A stretch of DNA of 32,774 bases from Oscillospiraceae bacterium (GTDB lineage Bacteria > Bacillota > Clostridia > Oscillospirales > Ruminococcaceae), in assembly GCA_900768675.1 (NCBI GenBank), contig CAAGDT010000045.1, forward strand, positions 1 through 32,774. The letters run 5' to 3'. Every line of letters starts with the position of its first letter. Within the stretch, counting starts at the first letter, position 1. Below the pieces are notes generated by a model. The model had not been told where the DNA came from. It was given only the letters and a program-made list of their open reading frames with translations, and ran no database searches. This document shows positions 185 to 13,102 of this stretch, one piece after another. The position numbers and the translations under genes were made by a program.

Positions 185-1288
185 TTATAAAACCGAGTCA
201 AGATATTCGGTCAGCGCTTCAAGGGAGAACGCCTGATAATATACTGCGTTGTTTTCGTAGGTGGTTGTGGTTACGCTGTAGTCAACAAGGCTGTTGGGGA
301 AGGTATCAAGCAAATCATCTCTTGAGTGTATCCGCAGATAAGCGCAGGGCGCTGTTTCTCCTGTTTCCTCGTTAATAACGCTGTCGTAAATATCGCAGAG
401 GAAGAATTCCCTGATTATGATAATGCCCTCGGAGGAAATCTCCGCAGTACAGAGAATACGGTCTCCCTCGGCGTAGCAGGGATTAGCGAAAAGCTGGCTG
501 CTTTCGTCTCCGAAGAATACCGCTACTGCGGGTATGCTTGCGTCTGTTACGGGGACGAACATATTGCCCCAGCCCTCGTTAATTGTTATTTTGTAGCAGG
601 AAATGGGGACAGCACTGTTTTTCGCAATTTCGCTTACCCCGTCTATTTCGGAAAATTCGTCCTTGTTAAAGCGGCTGTTTATTGTAAGGCTCAGTATTGA
701 AAGACTTCCGCCTTTAACCTTTACGGCGATATCATCCATACTATAATAGGGCATATCCGCATTACTTACAGAAAACTCATCGTATGCCGAAACAGCGGCT
801 CTCAAATCGGAGGAGGGGTATACGGGGCAGGGAGGAGTGATACTGTATAAATCCCCGTGGCTGCTCTCGGTTGATACTTTTGCCTCGGTAATACTGTATG
901 CTGCGCCGGAAACAAGAGGAGCTTCCGCCTCGGTTTCAGCGTATGGGATTACGGCTTCCGCAGTGGTTGTTGCTTCGTAAGCGCCGAAGGCTGCGGGCTG
1001 TAATGCAGCGGTTTCAGCGGTTGTCTGCCCGGAGTCTGCCGACCTGCCGCCGCTTAAGGGCGATTGATTTACAGAGCTTGTTTTAACACCGCCGTCAATT
1101 CCGAAAATTATTACCGCAGCAGAAACAAGGCAGATAGCTGCCGCCATACCGCCGTAGCGGACTGCGTTCATAAATATACGTGGCTTTGGCTTTTGCACCT
1201 GCTCCCTCATCATAAGGGATACTTTATCCAAAAGCTCGGGACTCGGAGTTATCCTGTCAATGTCTTTATGCAGTTGTTCTCTAAACAT
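185..1288 (-). CDS. Putative anti-sigma factor (single TM, extracellular domain)
   Basis: ATG at 1288 follows SD AAAGGAG and overlaps the ECF sigma stop. Short cytoplasmic N-terminus, one TM (GGMAAAICLVSAAVIIFGI), Ala/Thr/Glu-rich linker and a C-terminal extracytoplasmic domain. This is the classic ECF/anti-sigma arrangement. Confidence 0.7.
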   Translation of the reverse strand: MFREQLHKDIDRITPSPELLDKVSLMMREQVQKPKPRIFMNAVRYGGMAAAICLVSAAVIIFGIDGGVKTSSVNQSPLSGGRSADSGQTTAETAALQPAAFGAYEATTTAEAVIPYAETEAEAPLVSGAAYSITEAKVSTESSHGDLYSITPPCPVYPSSDLRAAVSAYDEFSVSNADMPYYSMDDIAVKVKGGSLSILSLTINSRFNKDEFSEIDGVSEIAKNSAVPISCYKITINEGWGNMFVPVTDASIPAVAVFFGDESSQLFANPCYAEGDRILCTAEISSEGIIIIREFFLCDIYDSVINEETGETAPCAYLRIHSRDDLLDTFPNSLVDYSVTTTTYENNAVYYQAFSLEALTEYLDSVL

Positions 1289-1796
1289 CGAATTCAACTC
1301 CTTTCAGCGATTCCTTAAGTATAGCCCGTGCACGGGAAAGTCTTGCTTTGACGGCGGATTCCGAGGAATTTGTGGCTCTTGCGATTTCCGCTACGGTCAT
1401 ATCCTCGTAGTAGAAGAGATAAACGGCTGTTCTGTACTTGTCCGAAAGCTTCATTACTGCACCAAGAACGTCGGAGCGGGTATCGGAGGCGGCAAGACCG
1501 CTGTCGCAGCCGCCGCTGTCTGTATCCTCCACGGAAAAGTCACGGTGACGGTTCCAGGCGCTTGTCAGAAAGGATTTCGAGCAGTTTATCGTGATTTTTA
1601 TAAGCCACGCCTTGCGGTGCTCCTCGTCGTTATAGGTCTTATCCGCCTTTATATAGCGGAGAAAGACCTCCTGCAATATATCGTCTGCATCGTGGGTATT
1701 CCCTACCCGCGAATAGGCAAGACGGTACACCATATCAGCGTATTTTCGCATTACCTCGTCAAAGCTTTCCCTTGTGACCAAGGAAAGTTCTGTCAT
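1281..1796 (-). CDS. ECF (sigma-70 group 4) RNA polymerase sigma factor
   Basis: 171 aa. Region 2 motifs DADDILQEVFL and KAWLIKITINCS; region 4 motifs YYEDMTVAEIA and SESAVKARLSRAR. Confidence 0.95.
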   Translation of the reverse strand: MTELSLVTRESFDEVMRKYADMVYRLAYSRVGNTHDADDILQEVFLRYIKADKTYNDEEHRKAWLIKITINCSKSFLTSAWNRHRDFSVEDTDSGGCDSGLAASDTRSDVLGAVMKLSDKYRTAVYLFYYEDMTVAEIARATNSSESAVKARLSRARAILKESLKGVEFDV

Positions 1797-1806
1797 TATT
1801 CGGTTT

Positions 1807-1893
1807 CCCTTACCTTTCTGCGAATTGCCGCCGCGGTAAGGGGGAGCGGCGGACAGTCCGCATCATAAGCTCTTATAATACTATCCGCAGAAA
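1807..1893 (-). promoter_or_regulatory. Structured 5' leader of the ECF sigma gene with anti-SD (candidate translational switch)
   Basis: Stems 1893-1883/1825-1815, 1881-1873/1868-1860 and 1852-1846/1834-1828. Loop sequence CCCUUACC (1842-1835) is complementary to the SD region GGUAAGGG (1814-1807). Confidence 0.45.
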
Positions 1894-1929
1894 TCAGCTG
1901 TATATTCCTGCTTTCAGTATCGGCTTCAA

Positions 1930-1964
1930 TAATAACACTGCGTAACCCGATAAAAGGTTACGCA
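1930..1964 (-). promoter_or_regulatory. Candidate ECF-type promoter with an overlapping 9-bp inverted repeat
   Basis: Minus strand GTAACCTTTT-N13-GTGTTATTA, with the same two boxes at 4383-4412. Perfect IR TGCGTAACC-N8-GGTTACGCA at 1939-1964. Confidence 0.45.
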
Positions 1965-1997: not shown

Positions 1998-2966
1998 TTA
2001 TTCAATAACTTCTATATTTTTGATAACTCCGTTGGAGAAGCTTACTCCGAACTGGTCGGACCATTCGATAAGCATACCGCTGAAGGTTATCCTTACTTTC
2101 TTTGAGCAGCTTTCCTGTCCTCCGTCAACAGCGGTATTTACTTCTGCATTATCAGCGTAATTCTCGTAAAGGTTGCCGCAGCGGAAGCGGGGAGAGTCGG
2201 TAAAGAGGGAAATGCCCTCCCCAAGCTCTGAGTAATCGTTCAGTAGGAAGAAATCGGGAATTCCCTGGGTTCCTCTGTCCGAAAGTTCCGGGTGGGGCAT
2301 ATCCTTGTAGGAGCTGTCGGGGAAGAAGAAAATATCGCCTGCGGTTACTGCATACTGATCGTCCCGGAAGAAGCGGATTGTTCCGGTAAGGGTAACGTCC
2401 TCGGTAATCTCGATTGTATTCGACATAGGATAAGCGATTAAATTGCCCTCTTCGTCGTTATATATACTGATTATGGAATGAACGGAATTGATGGTATGAC
2501 CGCCGAAGCTGTCCCCTGCCCTGACAGGCTTATAGCCCTCCGGCGTTACATATTCGCCGCTGTACTCGTAATTTTCCGCATCGAAAAGCCCGGGGTCTGT
2601 GATGCTGTCGTAATAGGTTCCGGTTGCGGGGCGGGCAAAGGCTAAGTCGTATTCAAGATAGTACTCCGTTTTGTTTGAAGCGTCCTCTGCATAAACCTCT
2701 GTACCGTCGGGAGCTGTCCATACAAGGGTTTTGCCCTCGTTGTCGGGTGCTGCTGTTTCCTCGGCGGTTGTTGTGGTTTCGGCGGTTGTAGTTTCCGCTG
2801 TTGTTTCTTTTGTGGCAGTAGTTTCTTCTGCGGCTGTTGTGGTTTCAGCGGCGGGTGTGGTGGTTGTGCCTTCCGTTGTTTCGGCGGTATTTCCGCCGGT
2901 TGAAGAACAGCCTGCGGCGGAGAGGATTGCTGCAAGTGCGAGAATGAGTGATATTGATTTTTTCAT
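1998..2966 (-). CDS. Lipoprotein with Thr/Glu/Ala-rich linker and unknown C-terminal domain
   Basis: Start reassigned to MKKSISL (ATG 2966, SD GAAAGGAAG). Signal peptide with lipobox-like LSAAG-C, then repeated ETTTA/ETTA linker. Confidence 0.85.
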   Translation of the reverse strand: MKKSISLILALAAILSAAGCSSTGGNTAETTEGTTTTPAAETTTAAEETTATKETTAETTTAETTTTAEETAAPDNEGKTLVWTAPDGTEVYAEDASNKTEYYLEYDLAFARPATGTYYDSITDPGLFDAENYEYSGEYVTPEGYKPVRAGDSFGGHTINSVHSIISIYNDEEGNLIAYPMSNTIEITEDVTLTGTIRFFRDDQYAVTAGDIFFFPDSSYKDMPHPELSDRGTQGIPDFFLLNDYSELGEGISLFTDSPRFRCGNLYENYADNAEVNTAVDGGQESCSKKVRITFSGMLIEWSDQFGVSFSNGVIKNIEVIE

Positions 2967-3060
2967 AACGTTTCTTCCTTTCTGAGCCTGTTGGCTCTTG
3001 TGGTATGGTTTTGGTGGGGTTGGTGGGGATTGTGGAGGGGGCGCCCTGCGCCAGCTCGGC
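2851..3060. repeat. Direct repeat copy 1 (leader + signal peptide), paired with 3942-4151
   Basis: Aligns ungapped at offset 1091. The non-coding part 2967-3060 vs 4058-4151 differs at 2 of 94 nt. Confidence 0.95.
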
Positions 3061-3166: not shown

Positions 3167-4057
3167 TTATTCCTCCGCAAATCCATAATCGCCGATTTTC
3201 CATTCCGCTCCGTCAAATGAAACGGTATAAATAATATCCCTGCTTTCAAGAGGCTCATCCGCAGCGCCGATTATATACGGGTTTCCTCCTTCCGGGTGGC
3301 ACAGCGCTCTTAACGTGATTTTATCCGGACTTTTTTCAAGCACGGTTATTTTCTCTCCGAAATTAACCCACTTGCCGTCGTCAATTGCAAAAGTATTTCC
3401 CGTAAGCGCTTCGGCAGGAATTTTGTCAACGTAAATCAGCTTTAAAATCCCGAAGAAACCTAGATATTCCTTTTCTTCGGCAGGCTTTTTTGAATATGTA
3501 AAATCCGGCTGATTTTTCGGTATGCCGCCGTGATTCGTTTCACAGTATTCGTACATAATTTCGGGGGACTGAGTATCAATCACATAGACCGTAGTTTCTC
3601 CCATAATCGTTGTAACGAGATAAGCGCAGCTTTCATCGCAGTAGATATCATTCAGCGTATAAAATCCGGGGCTGAAGGTGCTACCCGAATAGTAAAACTC
3701 GGGGTTTTCGGGCGCAGCCCCGCTCTCGTCAACCCAGCTGCCGTAAAAATACTTTTCAAAAACCTCAAAATCCTTCTCGTCAACAATGCTTTCGCCCGTA
3801 TAGTTGATTATATCGCTGCCCGCAGCCGACTGCTGCGCCTTTACGTTTTCTTCTGTCGTTTCTTTGGTTGCAGCAGTCGTTTCAGCGGGCGCTGTGACCT
3901 GTTCGGAAATTGCGTTTCCTATGATTTCTATGCTTTCTGCGGCGGTTGTGGTGGTTGTGCCTTCCGCTGTTGCAGTTGTGTTTCCGCCGGCTGAAGAACA
4001 GCCTGCGGCTGAGAGGATTGCCGAAAGTGCGAGGATTAGTGATATTGATTTTTTCAT
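3167..4057 (-). CDS. Lipoprotein with Thr-rich linker and unknown C-terminal domain
   Basis: Start reassigned to MKKSISL (ATG 4057, same SD as the paralog). Lipobox-like LSAAG-C. The mature domain is not visibly similar to that of 1998-2966. Confidence 0.85.
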   Translation of the reverse strand: MKKSISLILALSAILSAAGCSSAGGNTTATAEGTTTTTAAESIEIIGNAISEQVTAPAETTAATKETTEENVKAQQSAAGSDIINYTGESIVDEKDFEVFEKYFYGSWVDESGAAPENPEFYYSGSTFSPGFYTLNDIYCDESCAYLVTTIMGETTVYVIDTQSPEIMYEYCETNHGGIPKNQPDFTYSKKPAEEKEYLGFFGILKLIYVDKIPAEALTGNTFAIDDGKWVNFGEKITVLEKSPDKITLRALCHPEGGNPYIIGAADEPLESRDIIYTVSFDGAEWKIGDYGFAEE

Positions 4058-4151
4058 AACATTTCTTCCTTTCTGAGTCTGTTGGCTCTTGTGGTATGGT
4101 TTTGGTGGGGTTGGTGGGGATTGTGGAGGGGGCGCCCTGCGCCAGCTCGGC
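3942..4151. repeat. Direct repeat copy 2 (leader + signal peptide)
   Basis: Paired with 2851-3060. Confidence 0.95.
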
Positions 4152-4512: not shown

Positions 4513-4539
4513 TAAAGTTCGGAGGATTTCTGCCGATAT
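4513..4539 (+). promoter_or_regulatory. Sigma-28 (FliA/SigD) promoter
   Basis: TAAA-N15-GCCGATAT, an exact sigma-28 consensus, directly upstream of flgM. Confidence 0.9.
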
Positions 4540-4594
4540 AACAAATACAGAGCAATATCCGCGCTTCCATTCCATTGTAAAGGAGTTGACAGTA

Positions 4595-4873
4595 ATGGAG
4601 ATTAAAAATTTACAGGCAAGCTCGATAAACGCTTACAGAAAGCTTACCAGAACAACTGCGGTTAAAAAGAATACCGCCGCTGCAAAGGAAGCGGTGAATA
4701 CCGATAAGGTTGAATTTGACTTCGGACGCTATCTTGACGCAGCTAAGGCTAATGCTGCTTCAGGCGCTGATTCTGCTGCTTCGGCAGACAGACTTGCAGC
4801 TCTTGCCGAGAAATATGCGGGAGATAACTGCCCCGTAACGGCTGAGGATACGGCTGACGCTATGTTTTTCTGA
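4595..4873 (+). CDS. flgM: Anti-sigma-28 factor FlgM (divergent)
   Basis: ATG 4595 follows AAGGAG. 92 aa with DKVEF and C-terminal DRLAALAEKY...PVTAEDTADAM resembling FlgM. Lies before flgN/flgK behind a sigma-28 promoter. Confidence 0.75.
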   Translation: MEIKNLQASSINAYRKLTRTTAVKKNTAAAKEAVNTDKVEFDFGRYLDAAKANAASGADSAASADRLAALAEKYAGDNCPVTAEDTADAMFF

Positions 4874-4892
4874 TTAACGGAGGTGAAGGGAA

Positions 4893-5369
4893 ATGACGGT
4901 ACAGACTGCTGTAAAGGTTATAGCCTTTATGGAAAAATACAATAAGCATTTTGAGGAGCTCTGCGCCTTTGTTTCCGAAAAAAAGGCAAAGGTTATCGCC
5001 GACGAGCTGACCTGGCTTTTAGATTCACTCAATGTTGAGCAGAAATTCGTTATGGAGGGCAACGACCTTGAAGCAAAGCGGCTTGCGCTTTTTGAGGAGC
5101 TGGGTCTTTCCGGTGCAAAGGCAAAGCAGCTTTTAGAGGAATGTCCCGAAGAGTACAAGGCGAAATTTGCCCTTGAATGTCGGAGAATGGAGCAGAGCGT
5201 TGATTTTATCAAGGCTACAAATGCGGATATTATTGAAATAATAGAAAGAAAACTGTCAATTCAGGAGAAGCTTGCAAACAGAAGCCCCTCTACCGTCCAG
5301 ACCTACAACGGCAAGGGTACAAAGGTTACAAAGCATAACACATCGGGCGGCTTTTTCGGAGAGGTATAA
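4893..5369 (+). CDS. flgN: Flagellar export chaperone FlgN
   Basis: Helical 158 aa protein (LEAKRLALFEELGL...IKATNADII...TYNGKG) between flgM and flgK. SD GGAGGTG. Confidence 0.8.
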   Translation: MTVQTAVKVIAFMEKYNKHFEELCAFVSEKKAKVIADELTWLLDSLNVEQKFVMEGNDLEAKRLALFEELGLSGAKAKQLLEECPEEYKAKFALECRRMEQSVDFIKATNADIIEIIERKLSIQEKLANRSPSTVQTYNGKGTKVTKHNTSGGFFGEV

Positions 5370-5425
5370 AGGCATAAGGCAGTAAACAGGCTTTAATAAG
5401 GCAATACCGGAAGGATTGATTATAT

Positions 5426-7036
5426 ATGCGTTCATCATTTTTAGGCTTTGAGGTTTCAAAGCGGACAATACAGCTTTCTCAGAAAGCCCTTGATATTACG
5501 GGAAGCAACCTTTCCAACGCAAAGACCGAGGGCTATACAAGGCAGAGAATTGATATAGGTTCAAGCTACTTAAGCAAATATTCCTACTGGCAGTCCACCG
5601 CCTCCCGTATGACCCTTGCGGGACAGGGAGCGCAGGGCTTCGGTGTTGACCAGATAAGAGACCCCTACATAGATAAGCGCTACCGTGAGTCTGCCTGCTA
5701 CGTTGCAGAGTACAGCACCAATGTAGACGTGCTGAAAGAGGTTGAAAACGTACTGGACAATATCGACAGCGAGGGACTTACAGCAAGCCTCGATGAGTTC
5801 AAGAAGGCGCTTTCCACCTACGCAGAAAAGCCTTACAGCGAGGAATATGCAAGTATCGTAAGAAACCAGGCGTACAATATCACAAACCTTCTTCATTCCT
5901 ACAAGACCGACCTTGAAGCCCTTAAGGAAACAAACCTTGAGGCGCTGGAGGCTTCCGTTGACGAAACAAACGACATTATCGACCAGATAGTTGAATACAA
6001 CAAGTCCATTGTAAAGGAATACTCCGTTATGGCTTCCGGAAAGCTTGCAAACGGCGAGTCCGTTACAGGCTCCTACGGTCCCAACGAAATGCTTGACGCC
6101 CGAAACCTTCTTCTTGACGAGCTTGCCTATAAGGGCAACATCACGGTTTACGACAACCCTGACGGTTCGGTAAAGGTACTTATGGACGGTGTTGAGATTA
6201 TAAACGGCGAAAAGTACGAGCACCTTTATATGAAGGGCAGCACCAAAAAAGACGAGGAATATTCCTCCGAACTGCTAAGAGATTATTACGCTTATGATGC
6301 AGCAGTGCTTCGCTGGACCTCCGGCGATGACGCAGTGCTTAAATCCGGTGAGCTTAAGTCCTACGTCAATGTACTTAACGGCAACGGCGTTTACAAAACT
6401 GGCTACCAGAACGACTATTACGGAATACCCTACTACGAGTCCACAATAAACGCTTTTGCAGATACCTTTGCAAACTTTATGAACCGCTTTAACGGCGCTG
6501 TTGATGAGAACAACAACGTAATCGACAAGGACCGCCTGCTGTTCTGCACAAAGGAATACAACGAGGGTACGGAAAGCTACGAAGACCTGGATATGACCGC
6601 AGACAATATAAGAATTGCCAACGCATGGATGGAAAAGGCAACAATGTTAGGCGAGGTAAAGAACGAGAATACGGGAGCTTGGTCATTAAGTCTTGACGGC
6701 GACCATATCAACCAGCTTATAGTACAGATTGACAGCAAGTCAATGTCCTTCGGCGGAAAGGGCGACTACGAGGGTACGATTTACGACTACCTGCTCTTTA
6801 TAAATAACCGCTTAGGACAGAACATAGAATACAACAAAAATCAGTACGACTCGGCATTTGCCACCTCGGAAGCGCTGCTTGACAGCAGGGACGCAGTTTC
6901 GGGAGTTTCCGAAACCGAGGAGGGCATCAATATGCTCACATACCAGAACTGGTACAACGCAAGCTCAAGAATGATGACGGCAATGGATGAGGCGCTGGAC
7001 CGCCTTATAAACAATACCGGAAAGGTAGGTCTGTAA
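5426..7036 (+). CDS. flgK: Flagellar hook-associated protein 1 FlgK
   Basis: N-terminal ALDITGSNLSNAKTEGYTRQR and C-terminal RDAVSGVSETEEGINMLTYQNWYNASSRMMTAMDEALDRLIN. Confidence 0.95.
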   Translation: MRSSFLGFEVSKRTIQLSQKALDITGSNLSNAKTEGYTRQRIDIGSSYLSKYSYWQSTASRMTLAGQGAQGFGVDQIRDPYIDKRYRESACYVAEYSTNVDVLKEVENVLDNIDSEGLTASLDEFKKALSTYAEKPYSEEYASIVRNQAYNITNLLHSYKTDLEALKETNLEALEASVDETNDIIDQIVEYNKSIVKEYSVMASGKLANGESVTGSYGPNEMLDARNLLLDELAYKGNITVYDNPDGSVKVLMDGVEIINGEKYEHLYMKGSTKKDEEYSSELLRDYYAYDAAVLRWTSGDDAVLKSGELKSYVNVLNGNGVYKTGYQNDYYGIPYYESTINAFADTFANFMNRFNGAVDENNNVIDKDRLLFCTKEYNEGTESYEDLDMTADNIRIANAWMEKATMLGEVKNENTGAWSLSLDGDHINQLIVQIDSKSMSFGGKGDYEGTIYDYLLFINNRLGQNIEYNKNQYDSAFATSEALLDSRDAVSGVSETEEGINMLTYQNWYNASSRMMTAMDEALDRLINNTGKVGL

Positions 7037-7100
7037 TCAGGTCGGCGATAACCCGCCATCTGCTTCGTAAGCTGCATCTGACGGCTTCTCGCCGCCTTGA
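7034..7100. repeat. Imperfect palindromic intergenic repeat (short copy)
   Basis: TAATCAGG..G.CGATAA.C..CCATCTGCTTCGT...GCATCTG.CGGCTTCTCG.C.CC.TGA is shared with 14027-14138. Confidence 0.8.
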
Positions 7101-7138
7101 AAGTTTATTGGCATTTATCTATTACAGGAGGTTTTCCT

Positions 7139-8932
7139 ATGAGAATAGCAGGCAGCACAGTCCGCAGAAATTATCTTAAAAACTACGAGAGAAACTACTC
7201 CGACAAGTACGAGTCCGAGCAGAAAATATCCACATACCGCCAGTTCCAGCGGGCAAGCGAAAACCCCATAAATGCTGCCAAGGCTTTAAGAGTAAGAAAG
7301 TCTATTGCGGAAATAGAAACAAGCCAGAAGAACCTTAAATCCGCTTCTTCAATCTACCAGGCGGCGGAATCCTCTATGATGACCTTGTCCGAGATTATCC
7401 AGAACACTTACGAAAAGCTTGTTGAGGGCGCACACGGAACAAGAAACCAGGACGACCTTGAAATTATCGCAAAGGAAGTTGACAACTACGCCGAGGAGAT
7501 GATACAGTCCCTTAACGTAAACGTTTCCGACAGAAGAATTTTCGGCGCTCTCAATAACGAAACCGTTGCGTTCAAGATTGAAACCTCCGCCACAGGCGAT
7601 AAGTTCGTAACCTATAACGGAGTTGCGGTAAACTCCTCCTCCGACCCCCAGAGCTTCCCTTACAGCGGCACCTCTTACCTTGATATCGGCATAGGAATGT
7701 CGGTTGATAAGAGCACAAGCAGAATTGACGACCAGACCGCCCTTCCCATAACCTTCAACGGTGCGGAATGTACGGGCTGCGGCGTTACAAACAGAACTGC
7801 GATGATTTACCTTGACTCCGTAGTACCCGGTAATGCATACAAAATAAACGTTTCCGCAGGCGGACAGTCCAAGACAATTGAATTTAACGGCGGCGATACA
7901 AAGGAAGCTACTGTTGATAATATAAACGCAGCCTTAAAGCAGGCGTTTCAGGTCACTCCCGAAATAAGCGCCGACGGTACTATAAAGTACCTTGATAATA
8001 TCGAGGGCTACACGGGAACAGAGGTAAGAAACTACGAAAATGCTTCAATCGACGGTACTCCCGCTCTTGATATTGCTTCCCTTAAGGCGGATACCTACTA
8101 TTCTCTTGAAATAACCGCAGGAGAAAAGACAAGGGTTATCGACTTTATGGGCAGCGACAATATAAACACAACCCTTGACAATATAAGAACAGCTCTTAAT
8201 GATAAGTTCGGCGAGGACGCCCCCGAAATCTACTCCGACGGTATTTTCCTTGACGTTAATGGAAATCCCGCAGCAGTAAAGAACTGCTCCGACTATACAA
8301 ACAACGTAAGCTTTACCGCTGAGGGAAATATGGATTTAGCGGCGCTTACTCCCGGCGAGCAGTACACCGTAAACGTAAACGGCGTTAAGGTTTCCTTTGC
8401 GGCAGGAGCTGACGTGGACGAAACCGTAAAGAATATCAACGAGCAGTTCGCAAAGGACGGAATTTTCGGCGAGATAAACGTTCCTTATGTTGACCAGAAC
8501 GGAACGCTTATATATGACGGCGTTGATACCTCAATCGTTATAAGAAACGAGGAGTCCGCTTCAAATCAGCTTGAATTTTCCGAAATAGAGGGCTACTCAA
8601 AGAACATAATGCAGCTTATCCTTGACTCTGCAAAGGCGCTCAGATCAGGCGACCAGGACCTTGTTGCAAGATACGCCGACAAGATATACGCAGCTCAGAG
8701 TTCTCTTTCGATTGCAATTGCCGAGCTTGGTACAAACGATAAGTTTATCGAGTTCAACGAGGAAAGAACGGCTGACATACTCATAAATTTACAGGAAACC
8801 CAGAACGATATAGAAATTACCGATATGCCTTCGGAAATTACGAACTGGAAGGTGCTTGAAGCGGTTTATAACGCAACCCTTCAGATGGGCTCCTCGGTGC
8901 TTTCAATGTCAATCTTCGACTACATAAAATAA
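7139..8932 (+). CDS. flgL: Flagellar hook-associated protein 3 FlgL (enlarged)
   Basis: ATG 7139 follows AGGAGG. Flagellin-family N-terminus (QFQRASENPINAAKALR) and C-terminus (YNATLQMGSSVLSMSIFDYIK). Follows flgK. Confidence 0.9.
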   Translation: MRIAGSTVRRNYLKNYERNYSDKYESEQKISTYRQFQRASENPINAAKALRVRKSIAEIETSQKNLKSASSIYQAAESSMMTLSEIIQNTYEKLVEGAHGTRNQDDLEIIAKEVDNYAEEMIQSLNVNVSDRRIFGALNNETVAFKIETSATGDKFVTYNGVAVNSSSDPQSFPYSGTSYLDIGIGMSVDKSTSRIDDQTALPITFNGAECTGCGVTNRTAMIYLDSVVPGNAYKINVSAGGQSKTIEFNGGDTKEATVDNINAALKQAFQVTPEISADGTIKYLDNIEGYTGTEVRNYENASIDGTPALDIASLKADTYYSLEITAGEKTRVIDFMGSDNINTTLDNIRTALNDKFGEDAPEIYSDGIFLDVNGNPAAVKNCSDYTNNVSFTAEGNMDLAALTPGEQYTVNVNGVKVSFAAGADVDETVKNINEQFAKDGIFGEINVPYVDQNGTLIYDGVDTSIVIRNEESASNQLEFSEIEGYSKNIMQLILDSAKALRSGDQDLVARYADKIYAAQSSLSIAIAELGTNDKFIEFNEERTADILINLQETQNDIEITDMPSEITNWKVLEAVYNATLQMGSSVLSMSIFDYIK

Positions 8933-8967
8933 CTTCGGCGCAAAGCTCGTGAAAGGAGCGATAGGTT

Positions 8968-9600
8968 ATGGTAGAAAGTAATCTTCTCGATATTACCTCG
9001 GTACCGATTAAGGTAGAGATAAATATTAAAAAGGGCGAATTTGTAAACCCGAAGGCGGGAAATCCCGACCTTGCCCTTAAAATGGATATTAAGACTACCC
9101 CCGGAAAGCTTAAAATCCAGTCCGAGCCTACGAAAATCAATATCGACACCTATGCTGCCCGTTCAAGTATGGGCTACGGTCATTACAACAACGGCGACCT
9201 TATCAAGAAGGAGTCGGAAAAGGGCTTTTCCGTTGCCTACGAGGGCACAGCAAGGATAGTAAACGAGGGAAATCAGCTTGTCCGCGGCGCTTCCCCAGCC
9301 CAGATTGCGGCGCAGAACAACCGTGCAGGTCAGACAATCCAGACCGTTATGGAGTTTCTCCCGAAAACAGGCGCAGACGTAACCTTCGACAAGGGCGTGC
9401 TCAACATCAACTACGAGGTGGGTGACGTTGGAATAGACTGGGAGAACGCAGCGGCGATACCCTTTGAATATACCCCCGGCAGGGTTGAATTTCAGGTAAC
9501 CCAGATGCCAAGCGTGGAAATTGAGTATACCGGCGACCCGATATACGTTCCGGCACGTTCAGACCCGGATTATCAGCCCACGCTTGACGCAAGAGGCTGA
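8968..9600 (+). CDS. Conserved flagellar-operon protein (DUF6470/YviE-like)
   Basis: Lies between flgL and fliW. Motifs KINIDTYAARSSMG and PSVEIEYTGDPIYVP. SD AAAGGAG. Confidence 0.7.
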   Translation: MVESNLLDITSVPIKVEINIKKGEFVNPKAGNPDLALKMDIKTTPGKLKIQSEPTKINIDTYAARSSMGYGHYNNGDLIKKESEKGFSVAYEGTARIVNEGNQLVRGASPAQIAAQNNRAGQTIQTVMEFLPKTGADVTFDKGVLNINYEVGDVGIDWENAAAIPFEYTPGRVEFQVTQMPSVEIEYTGDPIYVPARSDPDYQPTLDARG

Positions 9601-9629
9601 TGCACAAAAAGCAGGAAAGGGATTTTGAT

Positions 9630-10067
9630 ATGATTACTGTTGAAACAAGAGATTTTGGTGCAGTTGACGTAGAGGAAAGCGCAGTTTTTGAATTTCCAAA
9701 CGGAGTTTATGCCTTTGAGGAGGATAAGAGATTTGCTCTTTTAAGCCCTTTGGGTGCAGGAATTTATCCTATGTGGCTTCAGTCCATGGATACCCCTTCT
9801 CTTTGCTTTATAGTTTTCGACCCTGTTCTTATAGACGACTCCTTTACCGTTGTCCTTTCCGACAGCGAGAAAAGCCTTATCGGCGTAAAGGAGGATTCCG
9901 ATATACGCAGTCTTGTTATTGCAAGAGTGCCCGAGAACTATAAGCAGACAACAGTAAATATGAAGTCCCCGATTATAATAAACACAAAGAACAATAAGGC
10001 GGAGCAGGTTATCCTGCCTCTCGATTATCCCTTCCGCCTTCCTATCTATGAGCAGGAGGTGGTATAA
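9630..10067 (+). CDS. fliW: Flagellar assembly factor FliW
   Basis: ETRDFG, FPNGVYAFE, WLQSMDTPSLCFIVFDP and TVNMKSPIIIN motifs. Immediately precedes csrA. Confidence 0.93.
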   Translation: MITVETRDFGAVDVEESAVFEFPNGVYAFEEDKRFALLSPLGAGIYPMWLQSMDTPSLCFIVFDPVLIDDSFTVVLSDSEKSLIGVKEDSDIRSLVIARVPENYKQTTVNMKSPIIINTKNNKAEQVILPLDYPFRLPIYEQEVV

Positions 10068-10294
10068 TGCTTGTCGTTACAAGAAAAACCGAGGAAAGCG
10101 TTATTATCGCCGATAATATCGAAATCGTGGTGCTTGAGGTCAGCAAGGACAGGGTGAAGCTTGGAATTACTGCACCTAAGGACGTAAAAATTATAAGAAA
10201 CGAGCTGAGGAATACCCAGGAATCCAACCTTGAGGCCTCCAAGGCAGTTTCAAAGGTGGCAATTACCGCTCTGCTGGAAAACGCCAAGAAGTAA
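10067..10294 (+). CDS. csrA: Carbon storage regulator CsrA
   Basis: MLVVTRKTEESVIIADNIEIVVLEVSKDRVKLGITAPKDVKIIRNEL. TAATG coupling with fliW. Confidence 0.96.
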   Translation: MLVVTRKTEESVIIADNIEIVVLEVSKDRVKLGITAPKDVKIIRNELRNTQESNLEASKAVSKVAITALLENAKK

Positions 10295-10315
10295 TTTTCG
10301 AAAGGATTTGATACT

Positions 10316-13102
10316 ATGGCTGACAATAAGATAAGAATGAGCGGTATGAATTCGGGACTTGATACCGAAAGTATCATCAAGGCTCTTACCGCAAACAGCA
10401 AGCTTAAAATTACAAAGCAGGAGAGAAATATCCTTAAGTATCAGGCTCAGCAGGAAGCCTACCGTGACGTTATCTCGAAGCTTACCGATTTAAAGAAAAG
10501 CTACTTTGATATTCTGAAAAAGGACTCCTACCTTGCAGGCGGTACTATGTGGAACAAGTACTCCGCAAAAACCCTTGTTGACGGTACAGAGAAGAATATT
10601 CAGGGTGTAGCAATTTCCACCACAATCAATTCAGCGGCGGGAAACTATAAGGTTAAGGTAAATAAAACCGCTACCCAGTCGAAAATTACGGGAAGCTCCT
10701 TAAGCGACGGCGCAAAGATTGACGCAGGCGCACTTACAAGCGGCGAAAGCTACGGAATTACCGTAACAGTAGGCGAAGATACAAAGAATATCACCTTTAC
10801 GGCAGGCGACTCCGCCGAGGAAACCATAAAGAACATCAACGACAAGCTTTCCGAAGCCTACGGAGAAAGCAATTCCTCTGCGGCAGGCGGCAGCAAGGGA
10901 CTTGTATACGTTGACGACAGCGGAAAGTTCGTTTCCCGTGCAGGCAAGGGCATTTCCATTTCCGGAATAGGTACTATGACCGGCACAAATACCCTCGACC
11001 TTTCGGGCATCAAGACCGGCTCCAACACCCTTACCTTCCAGGCGGGCGAGGAGGTTGTAAATGTTTCCTTCCAGACCCTTTCCTCCGACTATTTCAGTGA
11101 GATTTTCGACGAGGACGGAAATATAAAGGATGACGCAGACGAGGAGAAGGTTGCCCTTTACAATCAGATAAAGGACGACTACGTTGAGTCAAAGAAGTAC
11201 GAGGAATATACTGCTTGGGCAGAGAGCGCAACAGAGGACGAAAAGCAGGAGCTTCTGGATAAGACCTTTGTTAAGGCGCAGGAGGTTCACTACAATAAAT
11301 ATCTTGATAAGTTCTTAAGCGGCAAGTACGACGAGTACAAGGCTGAGGGCGGAGACGAGGATTACGATACCTGGAAGGCTGCAAACTACGTTGATAAGGA
11401 CGAGAATAACGCTCTTTACAAGGAATTTGCTGCGGATTACTACGACGTAAAGCTTACCGACGAGCAGAAGGCTGCAAGAGAAGCGGAGCTTGATACGTTC
11501 CTGCATGAAAAATACGCAGAGGCGCAGGCTGACGGAGAAACCGCTGAATTTGAGGACTGGAAGGCTGCGAACTTCAAGGATAAGGACGTAAATAACGCTC
11601 TTTATGCCGAGTTCAAGGCGATTGACGACGAAAAATACCCTACCCATATCGGCAAGGAGCTTGATAAGGACGCATGGAGCGTTGTTACCTATAACGAGTA
11701 CAGCGCATACAAGGAAGAGCTGGGTTCTGTAAGCGAGGATAACCTTACAATTACCCGGCAGAACATCGTTGACCACTATAATGCAACCAGCATAAAGAAC
11801 AGCATAGGCTCTCTTGAAACAGCATCGGGCGTTAAGTTCAGCGTAGAGATAAACGGCGGCTCAGCAGTTGTAACCGCAGAGGATAAGGAGGGCAACGCTC
11901 AGAACATTTCCGTTACCTCCGCAGCGGGCAGCACAAATAACTTCGGTGCAACAGCTGCCACAACCTCAATTTCACAGATTTCAAACACCACAACTCTTGC
12001 AAACTTAGGAATTGACGCTGACGAGGATGGCAATTACAATTTCACCATTAACGGCGTTGATTTCAGCTTCAGCGGCGATACTACCGTCAATGAAATGATG
12101 AAAAAGGTAAACGGCTCGGACGCGGGAGTAAAAATGGCGTACTCCTCCCTTGAAAATGCATTCACCGTAACCTCCACCGAGTATGGCACGGGAAGCAGGG
12201 TAGATATAAGCGCAGACGGACAGGGGCTGCTTGCGGGAATAGGACTTATGGCAGGTTCAAGCTACTCCGCAGGCACAAACCTTGAGGTTGAGATAAACGG
12301 AAGAATCCTTGAAAGCGACGGAAATTCGATTGAAGCTGACGGCACAACCTTCACCTTTACCGAGGGCAGCGAGGGTACTGAGTTTACCGTAAATATCGAA
12401 AAGGATACCGCAGCTATTGCAGATACTATAAAGGGCTTTGTTGAGCAGTACAACAAGGCGATAAAGGAGATTTACGAATATTTAGACCAGGAGCCTGAAA
12501 AGAAATATTATTTTCTTGCAGACGCCGATAAGGAAGACCTGGAACTGACCGAAAAGCAGGAGGAGCAGTGGGAGGAAAAGGCCAAGAAGGGCGTAATCTA
12601 CCACGACTCCACCATAACCGCAGCTATGACCAGCTTAAGAACCGCTCTCATGGGAGCTGTTGAGGGCGCAGACGGTAAGGCTTTCTCTCTTGCTTCCTTG
12701 GGCATTACCACAGCCACCGACTATAACGAGCACGGAAAGCTGATGATAGACGAGGATAAGCTTAATGCCGCAATTGCATCAAACAGCGACGATATTGCAA
12801 AGCTGTTCTCCGACAAGGAAAACGGCATAATGAAGAAGTTTGCCGATGCTCTTGATGGTGCAGTAGGCACTACCGGCGACAAGGGTACTCTTATCAACAA
12901 GGCAGGTCTTGCAACCGGCTCAACCGCCAAGGAAAACGAGATTTACGAGCTTATCAAGAGAACCACTCAGAAAATATCCTCTCTCACCGAGAGATACGAA
13001 AACGAGCAGGACAGACTCTGGAAGAAGTATTCCGCTATGGAAAAAATGCTTTCCTCCCTTAACAGCCAGCAGTCCTCATTTATGTCATATTTCCAGGGCT
13101 GA
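10316..13102 (+). CDS. fliD: Flagellar filament cap protein FliD (enlarged, 928 aa)
   Basis: N-terminal SGMNSGLDTESIIKAL and C-terminal IDEDKLNAAI...RLWKKYSAMEKMLSSLNSQQS. Precedes fliS. Confidence 0.93.
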   Translation: MADNKIRMSGMNSGLDTESIIKALTANSKLKITKQERNILKYQAQQEAYRDVISKLTDLKKSYFDILKKDSYLAGGTMWNKYSAKTLVDGTEKNIQGVAISTTINSAAGNYKVKVNKTATQSKITGSSLSDGAKIDAGALTSGESYGITVTVGEDTKNITFTAGDSAEETIKNINDKLSEAYGESNSSAAGGSKGLVYVDDSGKFVSRAGKGISISGIGTMTGTNTLDLSGIKTGSNTLTFQAGEEVVNVSFQTLSSDYFSEIFDEDGNIKDDADEEKVALYNQIKDDYVESKKYEEYTAWAESATEDEKQELLDKTFVKAQEVHYNKYLDKFLSGKYDEYKAEGGDEDYDTWKAANYVDKDENNALYKEFAADYYDVKLTDEQKAAREAELDTFLHEKYAEAQADGETAEFEDWKAANFKDKDVNNALYAEFKAIDDEKYPTHIGKELDKDAWSVVTYNEYSAYKEELGSVSEDNLTITRQNIVDHYNATSIKNSIGSLETASGVKFSVEINGGSAVVTAEDKEGNAQNISVTSAAGSTNNFGATAATTSISQISNTTTLANLGIDADEDGNYNFTINGVDFSFSGDTTVNEMMKKVNGSDAGVKMAYSSLENAFTVTSTEYGTGSRVDISADGQGLLAGIGLMAGSSYSAGTNLEVEINGRILESDGNSIEADGTTFTFTEGSEGTEFTVNIEKDTAAIADTIKGFVEQYNKAIKEIYEYLDQEPEKKYYFLADADKEDLELTEKQEEQWEEKAKKGVIYHDSTITAAMTSLRTALMGAVEGADGKAFSLASLGITTATDYNEHGKLMIDEDKLNAAIASNSDDIAKLFSDKENGIMKKFADALDGAVGTTGDKGTLINKAGLATGSTAKENEIYELIKRTTQKISSLTERYENEQDRLWKKYSAMEKMLSSLNSQQSSFMSYFQG
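11303..11620 (+). repeat. Intragenic tandem duplication in fliD (62-codon period)
   Basis: TGGAAGGCTGCAAAC...GATAAGGAC...AATAACGCTCTTTA at 11372 recurs at 11558 (186 nt apart). LDxFL codons at 11303 and 11489. Confidence 0.85.

Follow-up and report, generated by a model that had tools for sequence, protein, structure and literature searches.

The window, i.e. the whole 32,774-nt stretch of DNA analysed here, carries on its minus strand a gene for an ECF sigma factor (Table 1), as the earlier note on this DNA had supposed; a Pfam scan found Sigma70_r2 and Sigma70_r4_2 in its product. The ORF that overlaps its stop codon has an N-terminal helical domain, a hydrophobic segment and a variable extracytoplasmic part and matched no Pfam or NCBIfam model; from its position and this layout we infer that it encodes an anti-sigma factor. 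A homologous anti-sigma-like gene lies immediately 3' of the sigma gene in the orthologous loci, many of which are divergent from flgM-flgN-like genes (FlgN recognised by Pfam). A sigma2+sigma4 protein, a membrane partner and an upstream AAC-type promoter together make up the layout of an autoregulated ECF/anti-sigma operon. On the plus strand of the window lies a flagellar operon (4586-13102) with a sigma-D-like promoter at 4513; its FlgN was confirmed by Pfam, and we take ORFs of this operon to be flgM-, flgK-, flgL-, fliW-, csrA- and fliD-like.

Table 1. Coordinates of the genes, signals and predicted RNA helices of the sigma locus in the window.
Feature	Position	Strand	Details
Putative membrane anti-sigma factor ORF	185..1288	-	367 aa; 8-nt overlap with the sigma stop
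ECF sigma gene	1281..1796	-	171 aa, conserved N-terminal extension; Pfam PF04542 and PF08281
Anti-sigma gene SD	1298..1305	-	strong; within the sigma 3' end, 9 nt before its own ATG
H3, 8-bp hairpin (predicted)	1765..1787	-	codons 4-11; 1787-1780 with 1772-1765; +10 to +32
A-rich linker and SD region (S2 3' strand)	1807..1818	-	linker 1818-1815, SD region 1814-1807; 10 nt to ATG
Anti-SD (S2 5' strand)	1835..1842	-	in S1 loop, flush on inner stem
S1 hairpin (predicted)	1819..1862	-	outer stem 1862-1857/1824-1819; inner stem (P3) 1852-1846/1834-1828; 11-nt loop 1845-1835
H1, 5' hairpin (predicted)	1887..1911	-	1911-1904 with 1894-1887; occupies the 5' strand of the earlier P1
ECF-type promoter	1933..1961	-	-35 at 1961-1956, 17-nt spacer, -10 at 1938-1933
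Helices of the earlier note		-	P1 1893-1883/1825-1815; P2 1881-1873/1868-1860; P3 1852-1846/1834-1828; state-B 1888-1881/1856-1849

Orthologues of the sigma factor at E <= 1e-40, one apiece, were found in 67 of the 108 genomes of the genus. The set of homologues comprised 210 loci, which were reduced to 155 distinct ones by dropping duplicates and one locus without a start, and a quick protein tree of 112 of these placed the window sigma within a 44-row clade (SH-aLRT 94). A DNA tree of 50 rows supported the sub-branches and left the branch order and the placement of the outgroup open.

An ECF-type promoter, with an AAC-containing -35, a 17-nt spacer and a GTGTTA -10, lies 5' of 41 of the 44 clade genes. 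In the window it would set +1 near 1927 and give a leader of about 131 nt; the transcript would thus start 5' of the element described below, with the whole of it inside, and not downstream of about 1850, the case that the earlier note had named as damaging to its proposal. The promoter motif has three matches in the genome, against none for the reversed control, and one or two per genome in five relatives, one of them always before the sigma gene. The promoter is probably read by its own sigma factor, an arrangement reported as the rule for about half of ECFs (PMC8103513). The other two genomic matches (C59:12993 and C175:1228) lie before a gene for a GH5 glycoside-hydrolase lipoprotein and one for another lipoprotein, which has two Ig-like (Big_14) domains. 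These targets hint at a small cell-surface regulon; the targets of the motif differ among relatives.

Several further features of this neighbourhood were noted. A second copy of the ECF-type promoter, with a 15-nt spacer, lies at 4412-4386 (minus strand) 5' of two lipoprotein genes; in close relatives the promoter of the sigma gene sits directly beside flgM, at the site that matches this copy, which is possibly a remnant predating the insertion of the lipoprotein genes. The leaders of these two genes (2966-3060 and 4057-4151, minus strand) are 98% identical over 95 nt; in both, an unstructured C/A-rich tract precedes the SD and related palindromes lie upstream, and there are no further copies in the genome. 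The spacer of the sigma promoter lies within a 9-bp inverted repeat (1939-1964) that is absent from most orthologues. Sigma-70-type promoters inside the leader were at chance level (three sites against 1.5 +/- 1.3 expected), and a search for terminators on either strand gave only the promoter palindrome, with no U-tract after a stem.

The earlier note had proposed that the leader switches between a three-way junction formed by P1, P2 and P3 (state A) and an alternative, state-B helix. All of its named helices, and the anti-SD, are present in the sequence. State A is the minimum free energy (MFE) fold of 1780-1910 (z = -2.57; 1 of 200 shuffles was as stable), and in this respect the proposal stands; in the full leader it is minor, with probabilities of 0.06 or less for P1 and P2. 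The state-B helix likewise has a probability of 0.06 or less in the full leader between 25 and 42 C, though it does occur in the MFE fold of L043. Both states as drawn are minor because H1 takes the 5' strand of P1 once the leader begins near 1927; H1 has a pair probability of 0.96-1.0 in the full leader and is the earliest hairpin to form in co-transcriptional snapshots, and leaders of the L067, L070 and L023 types have a 5' hairpin of other sequence. The three-way junction and the state-B helix were seen only in L013, L014 and L043, whose sigma factors are 96-100% identical. P1 and the pseudoknot, which the earlier note had allowed to form together, are mutually exclusive, since the SD starts at the base of P1 without a linker and the constraint on pseudoknot loop lengths forbids such an arrangement.

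The conserved element is smaller than this proposal: it consists of a hairpin whose loop holds an anti-SD, with the SD just 3' of it, in a compact stretch of about 55 nt. The loop anti-SD (1842-1835) is an exact 8-bp complement of 1814-1807, 10 nt before the ATG at 1796, a match equalled in 1 of 200 shuffled versions of the upstream leader (p 0.01), and the computed geometry of this pairing within the S1 loop is that of an H-type pseudoknot, so the earlier note had this part of the structure right. It had also proposed two alternative folds; two of nearly equal stability are computed here. In the nested model at 37 C, S1 has a probability of about 0.6 and the anti-SD:SD helix one of about 0.4 for three of four transcript lengths; in a transcript cut at 1776, i.e. 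without half of H3, the values are 0.95 and 0.05. When pseudoknots are allowed, the pseudoknot of the window leader is computed to lie 1.8 kcal/mol below the open hairpin. The actual competition, as modelled, is between a zipped hairpin that leaves the SD free and a pseudoknot that hides it.

The stretch is single-copy in the genome (next match E 0.12), i.e. not a repeat element, and the earlier note's failure to recognise a known family agrees with Rfam (release 15), which gave no match in the window at the gathering threshold. Below threshold, four matches in 1700-2050 all lay upstream of the leader, and none of five matches in 12 loci fell within a leader. Control by an upstream ORF was considered and rejected: four of the 18 leaders described next have no upstream ATG, and frames and lengths differ in the others. 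In the window leader an unconserved 18-codon Arg-rich ORF ends inside the SD region.

Eighteen distinct leaders, chosen by eye, have a common layout of S1 stem, loop anti-SD, short A-rich linker and SD. For 16 of them the complement is longer than in at least 95% of shuffles (the others are L049, p 0.075, and L024, p 0.43), and among 23 other promoter-bearing clade leaders only one passes the same test. A detector requiring at least six perfect S2 pairs over the SD core, at least five S1 pairs and bounded loops, and written after the examples had been seen, matched 16 of the 44 loci of the clade and none of the 111 other homologues. In the genome it matched 5 of 2142 ORFs, and the window locus ranked first of the 2142 and was the sole one with S2 of eight or more. 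A fixed pattern run over 400 genomes of the family gave eight matches against 13 for the reversed control; it allowed a spacer of at most 9 nt and thus missed the window's own copy, and one of its eight matches, before a 72-codon ORF, passed the detector. Seventeen further loci of the genus comprised 12 duplicates of known leaders and five new leaders without the element.

Two further sets of non-coding stretches were also noted. The leaders of L068, L125 and L134 have insertions of 100-200 nt between promoter and SD, palindrome-rich in L068 and L125, and the one in L134 leaves the downstream pseudoknot module intact. In L223, L226 and L230, which belong to different genera, there are similar non-coding stretches that contain an internal complementary pair and have a shared motif upstream; they are unrelated to the ECF leader and gave no Rfam match.

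The anti-SD and the SD change jointly at five positions (-1, with three pair types, -2, -3, the first A and +1), the covariation in orthologues that the earlier note had asked for. The MAFFT alignments A1 and A2 place the two strands out of register, and the pair-count tool was thus not used for S2; covariation was instead read from a per-sequence register table anchored on the SD core, with the register fitted to each sequence. When anti-SDs and SDs were permuted among six lineages, the native pairing came first among the 720 permutations, with 34 pairs where the mean is 23.8. The fitted register makes this permutation test favour structure, and the background counts given above weigh more. 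A stem at the S1 position, differing in sequence, is present in all 18 element-bearing leaders and in four leaders that lack the anti-SD loop while keeping linker and SD (L018, L045, L046 and L016). A 22-row branch has a different short leader, and 26 of the 44 close orthologues lack the anti-SD and retain the same operon. Invariant columns are confined to the linker and the SD, with no conserved unpaired nucleotides outside the SD region. On this comparative evidence the anti-SD:SD helix is very probably under selection, and the leader holds what we take to be a real, lineage-limited RNA element with covariation. That it was ancestral and then lost is only a parsimony guess, because the DNA tree leaves the deep forks open.

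Pseudoknot energies were calculated with a Dirks-Pierce-like penalty whose value is assumed, to about +/- 3 kcal/mol. With this penalty the pseudoknot was predicted to be more stable than the open hairpin by 0.9-8.6 kcal/mol in 17 of the 18 leaders, the exception being L024, which has 5 bp only and a pseudoknot 8.3 kcal/mol above the open hairpin; the states were within about 5 kcal/mol of each other in 13 of 18. The 18 models have an S1 of 7-12 bp, an S2 of 5-11 bp and loops L1 of 1-8, L2 of 0-5 and L3 of 5-12 nt, and are of H-type, i.e. with interleaved stems, feasible loops and the SD in the second stem. The anti-SD lies flush on S1 (L2 = 0) in 10 of the 18 best models, and in most long-stem lineages the outer stem must unzip before the pseudoknot can form. 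Some closed folds also pair the S1 5' strand with the beginning of the coding sequence, in a manner that differs among lineages. Nested structures alone give the initiation region an ordinary opening cost, 6.7 kcal/mol where the genome median is 7.5; the medians are 6.8 kcal/mol for element-bearing and 8.1 for other clade leaders, and calculation over a shorter span reverses the direction (9.3 against 6.9). Because this cost is ordinary, repression would depend on the pseudoknot term and hence on the assumed penalty.

A further hairpin, H3, is predicted in the early sigma codons in every one of the 44 clade rows, two of them with a shortened form, and also in nine outgroup rows, and its 5' strand is predicted to be able to pair with the SD as well. 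Codons 4-5 and 11 are nearly invariant (43/44, 42/44 and 43/43), whereas among 92 conserved columns further on 4 reach 95%. Over 60 rows 76.3% of cells pair, compared with 71.0% when shuffled; the covariation score, 0.247 where shuffling gives 0.174, was reached by 0 of 500 shuffles and is the best of all slides. In the same rows the count of doubly changed pairs was not above that in shuffles and RNAalifold returned no H3 consensus; single-sequence recoding tests were weak (p 0.01-0.37 in the clade). H3 is probably real, with moderate support that falls short of proof.

The reading that we favour, with a probability of roughly 0.55, is that the leader is a cis-acting translational damper that holds an autoregulated sigma factor below its anti-sigma factor. 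The sigma gene would be transcribed from its own ECF-type promoter, presumably with positive feedback. In the nascent RNA, H1 and the S1 hairpin would fold first and the SD would emerge free; the loop anti-SD would then capture the SD, in most lineages by unzipping the outer stem, and the resulting H-type pseudoknot (or a nested hairpin close to it in energy) would keep the 30S subunit from binding. Translation of sigma would be confined to a minority or short-lived open form, and the anti-sigma factor would be translated from its own stronger SD, so that anti-sigma would be in excess and the loop would not fire by itself. The observations behind this model are the sequence, its conservation and covariation, the promoter motif and the SD strengths, and its folds and energies are computed; the start site, autoregulation, repression, kinetic order and purpose are what it proposes. 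The anti-sigma SD is stronger than the sigma SD in 42 of 43 clade loci, as scored on an assumed 16S tail, none having been found in the assembly. Against the damper, this strong SD falls within conserved codons of the sigma gene and also occurs in leaders that lack the element. Variable loops and repeated absence suit a tuning device better than a binding pocket. Also counting against the damper are the zipped outer stem, whose retention in several lineages exceeds what a plain damper needs, the absence of the element from 26 of 44 relatives with the same operon, and the 5-bp helix of L024 with its unfavourable computed pseudoknot.

That retained outer stem, together with the near-equality of the two states, both in the pseudoknot energies and in the nested model, would be expected of a switch in which a protein, a small RNA, an ion or temperature tips the balance between the zipped hairpin (ON) and the pseudoknot (OFF), a reading that we consider possible, if unlikely. 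A candidate cue is free CsrA: two ORFs at 9600-10294 in the divergent flagellar operon, picked out by eye and offered as a lead only, are presumably fliW and csrA. However, the S1 loop has no GGA, no unpaired nucleotides outside the SD region are conserved, and 26 of 44 close orthologues do without the element. The computed temperature response is also small: between 30 and 42 C the energy difference between pseudoknot and open hairpin shifts by 0.4 kcal/mol in the window leader and by at most 2.5 in 11 of 12 leaders tested, with the penalty assumed it never crosses zero between 20 and 50 C in any of the 12 models, and the nested probabilities are flat (a temperature jump in L015 stems from the choice of another geometry). 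If such a switch did exist, it would give the ECF system a second, RNA-level input independent of the membrane anti-sigma factor, through a fold conserved in shape and not in sequence.

It is doubtful that the hairpin alone matters, for protection or spacing of the mRNA 5' end, with the anti-SD a by-product of template switching between nearby inverted repeats. Template switching can imitate compensatory change, stem and A-rich linker persist without the anti-SD in the four leaders named above, and the nested opening costs are ordinary. Against this, the complement follows the SD across four deep branches despite diverging neighbour letters, the anti-SD sits in the loop with linkers that suit a pseudoknot, and the background contains only 5 such arrangements in 2142 ORFs and none in 111 homologues.

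The earlier note had also considered a ligand or temperature as the input. Nothing points to either: sequence varies both in the loops and in the S1 stem, 26 of 44 close orthologues lack the element, and the computed balance is nearly flat with temperature. In topology the element equals the small H-type metabolite riboswitches of the preQ1-I, SAM-II and NAD+-II-like classes, in which a ligand locks the SD helix (PMC3905878; PMC8632094, pnuC motif). We regard a member of such a class as very improbable: there was no Rfam match in the window or in nine orthologous loci, L1-L3 vary in length and sequence among lineages without a conserved pocket, whereas ligand pockets are described as the most conserved part of riboswitches (PMC7266159), and an S2 of 6-11 bp would be stable without ligand. 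A metabolite riboswitch or a thermometer is unlikely because the loop sequence is not conserved and the computed temperature dependence is weak. The earlier note's model as drawn, with state A exchanging with the state-B helix, has scarcely any likelihood left, since its helices are minor in a leader that starts at 1927 and confined to three genomes, even though state A is the MFE fold of the shorter segment and the state-B helix occurs in that of L043.

The damper model can be compared with several described systems. As in preQ1-I of T. tengcongensis, SAM-II and pnuC/NAD+-II (PMC3905878, PMC8632094), a hairpin loop would pair with the SD to give an H-type pseudoknot, but here there is no conserved pocket and no Rfam match, the SD helix is longer (6-11 bp), an outer stem competes and the gene is regulatory rather than metabolic. 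At the E. coli rpsO/uS15 and alpha operon/uS4 operators a pseudoknot likewise lies at the regulated gene's ribosome-binding site, though these are described as binding the RNA-binding product of the operon through conserved motifs (PMC10931766); no such protein or motif was identified here. RNA thermometers such as ROSE and fourU share the anti-SD pairing and the slight sequence conservation, but are described as simple hairpins melting at weak SD pairs (PMC8346122), whereas the pairing here is perfect Watson-Crick with a computed balance near temperature independence. In the maturation leader of MS2 (Levivirus) a metastable hairpin is described as delaying an SD-blocking helix: it first captures an upstream SD complement, which pairs with the SD later, so that translation is possible for a short time (PMC4615214). 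There the complement is paired within the metastable stem and the RNA ends up as a nested cloverleaf, whereas here a loop exposes it and a pseudoknot is the predicted closed form.

The closest likeness in outcome would be to Streptomyces SigR-RsrA, for which damped sigma translation and a separate anti-sigma ribosome-binding site (RBS) are reported to give an excess of anti-sigma (PMC5472188). An overlapping anti-sigma gene that has an RBS of its own 9 nt upstream is common to both; low translation of the ECF factor would be shared under the damper model, and the excess reported for SigR-RsrA is, in our case, suggested by SD strengths. SigR is damped through a GTC start codon and IF3 according to the same report, whereas the present gene has an ATG start and RNA structure is proposed instead. 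In the titles and abstract openings of the literature searched there was no pseudoknot on an ECF leader; the supplement of PMC11109978 may list motifs outside Rfam.

The element has a narrow range, i.e. part of one genus of uncultured gut Oscillospiraceae, and L018, L045, L046 and L016 are natural loss variants that provide ready controls. It is invisible to searches for nested structure and to sequence profiles, which suggests that other elements of similarly limited lineage range escape notice. Accounts of ECF systems usually centre on anti-sigma release and transcriptional feedback, and the means by which sigma stays below anti-sigma are understood in few cases, SigR among them. If the damper model is correct, an SD pseudoknot with covariation would solve the problem of the sigma/anti-sigma ratio at the RNA level, on the leader of an ECF gene.
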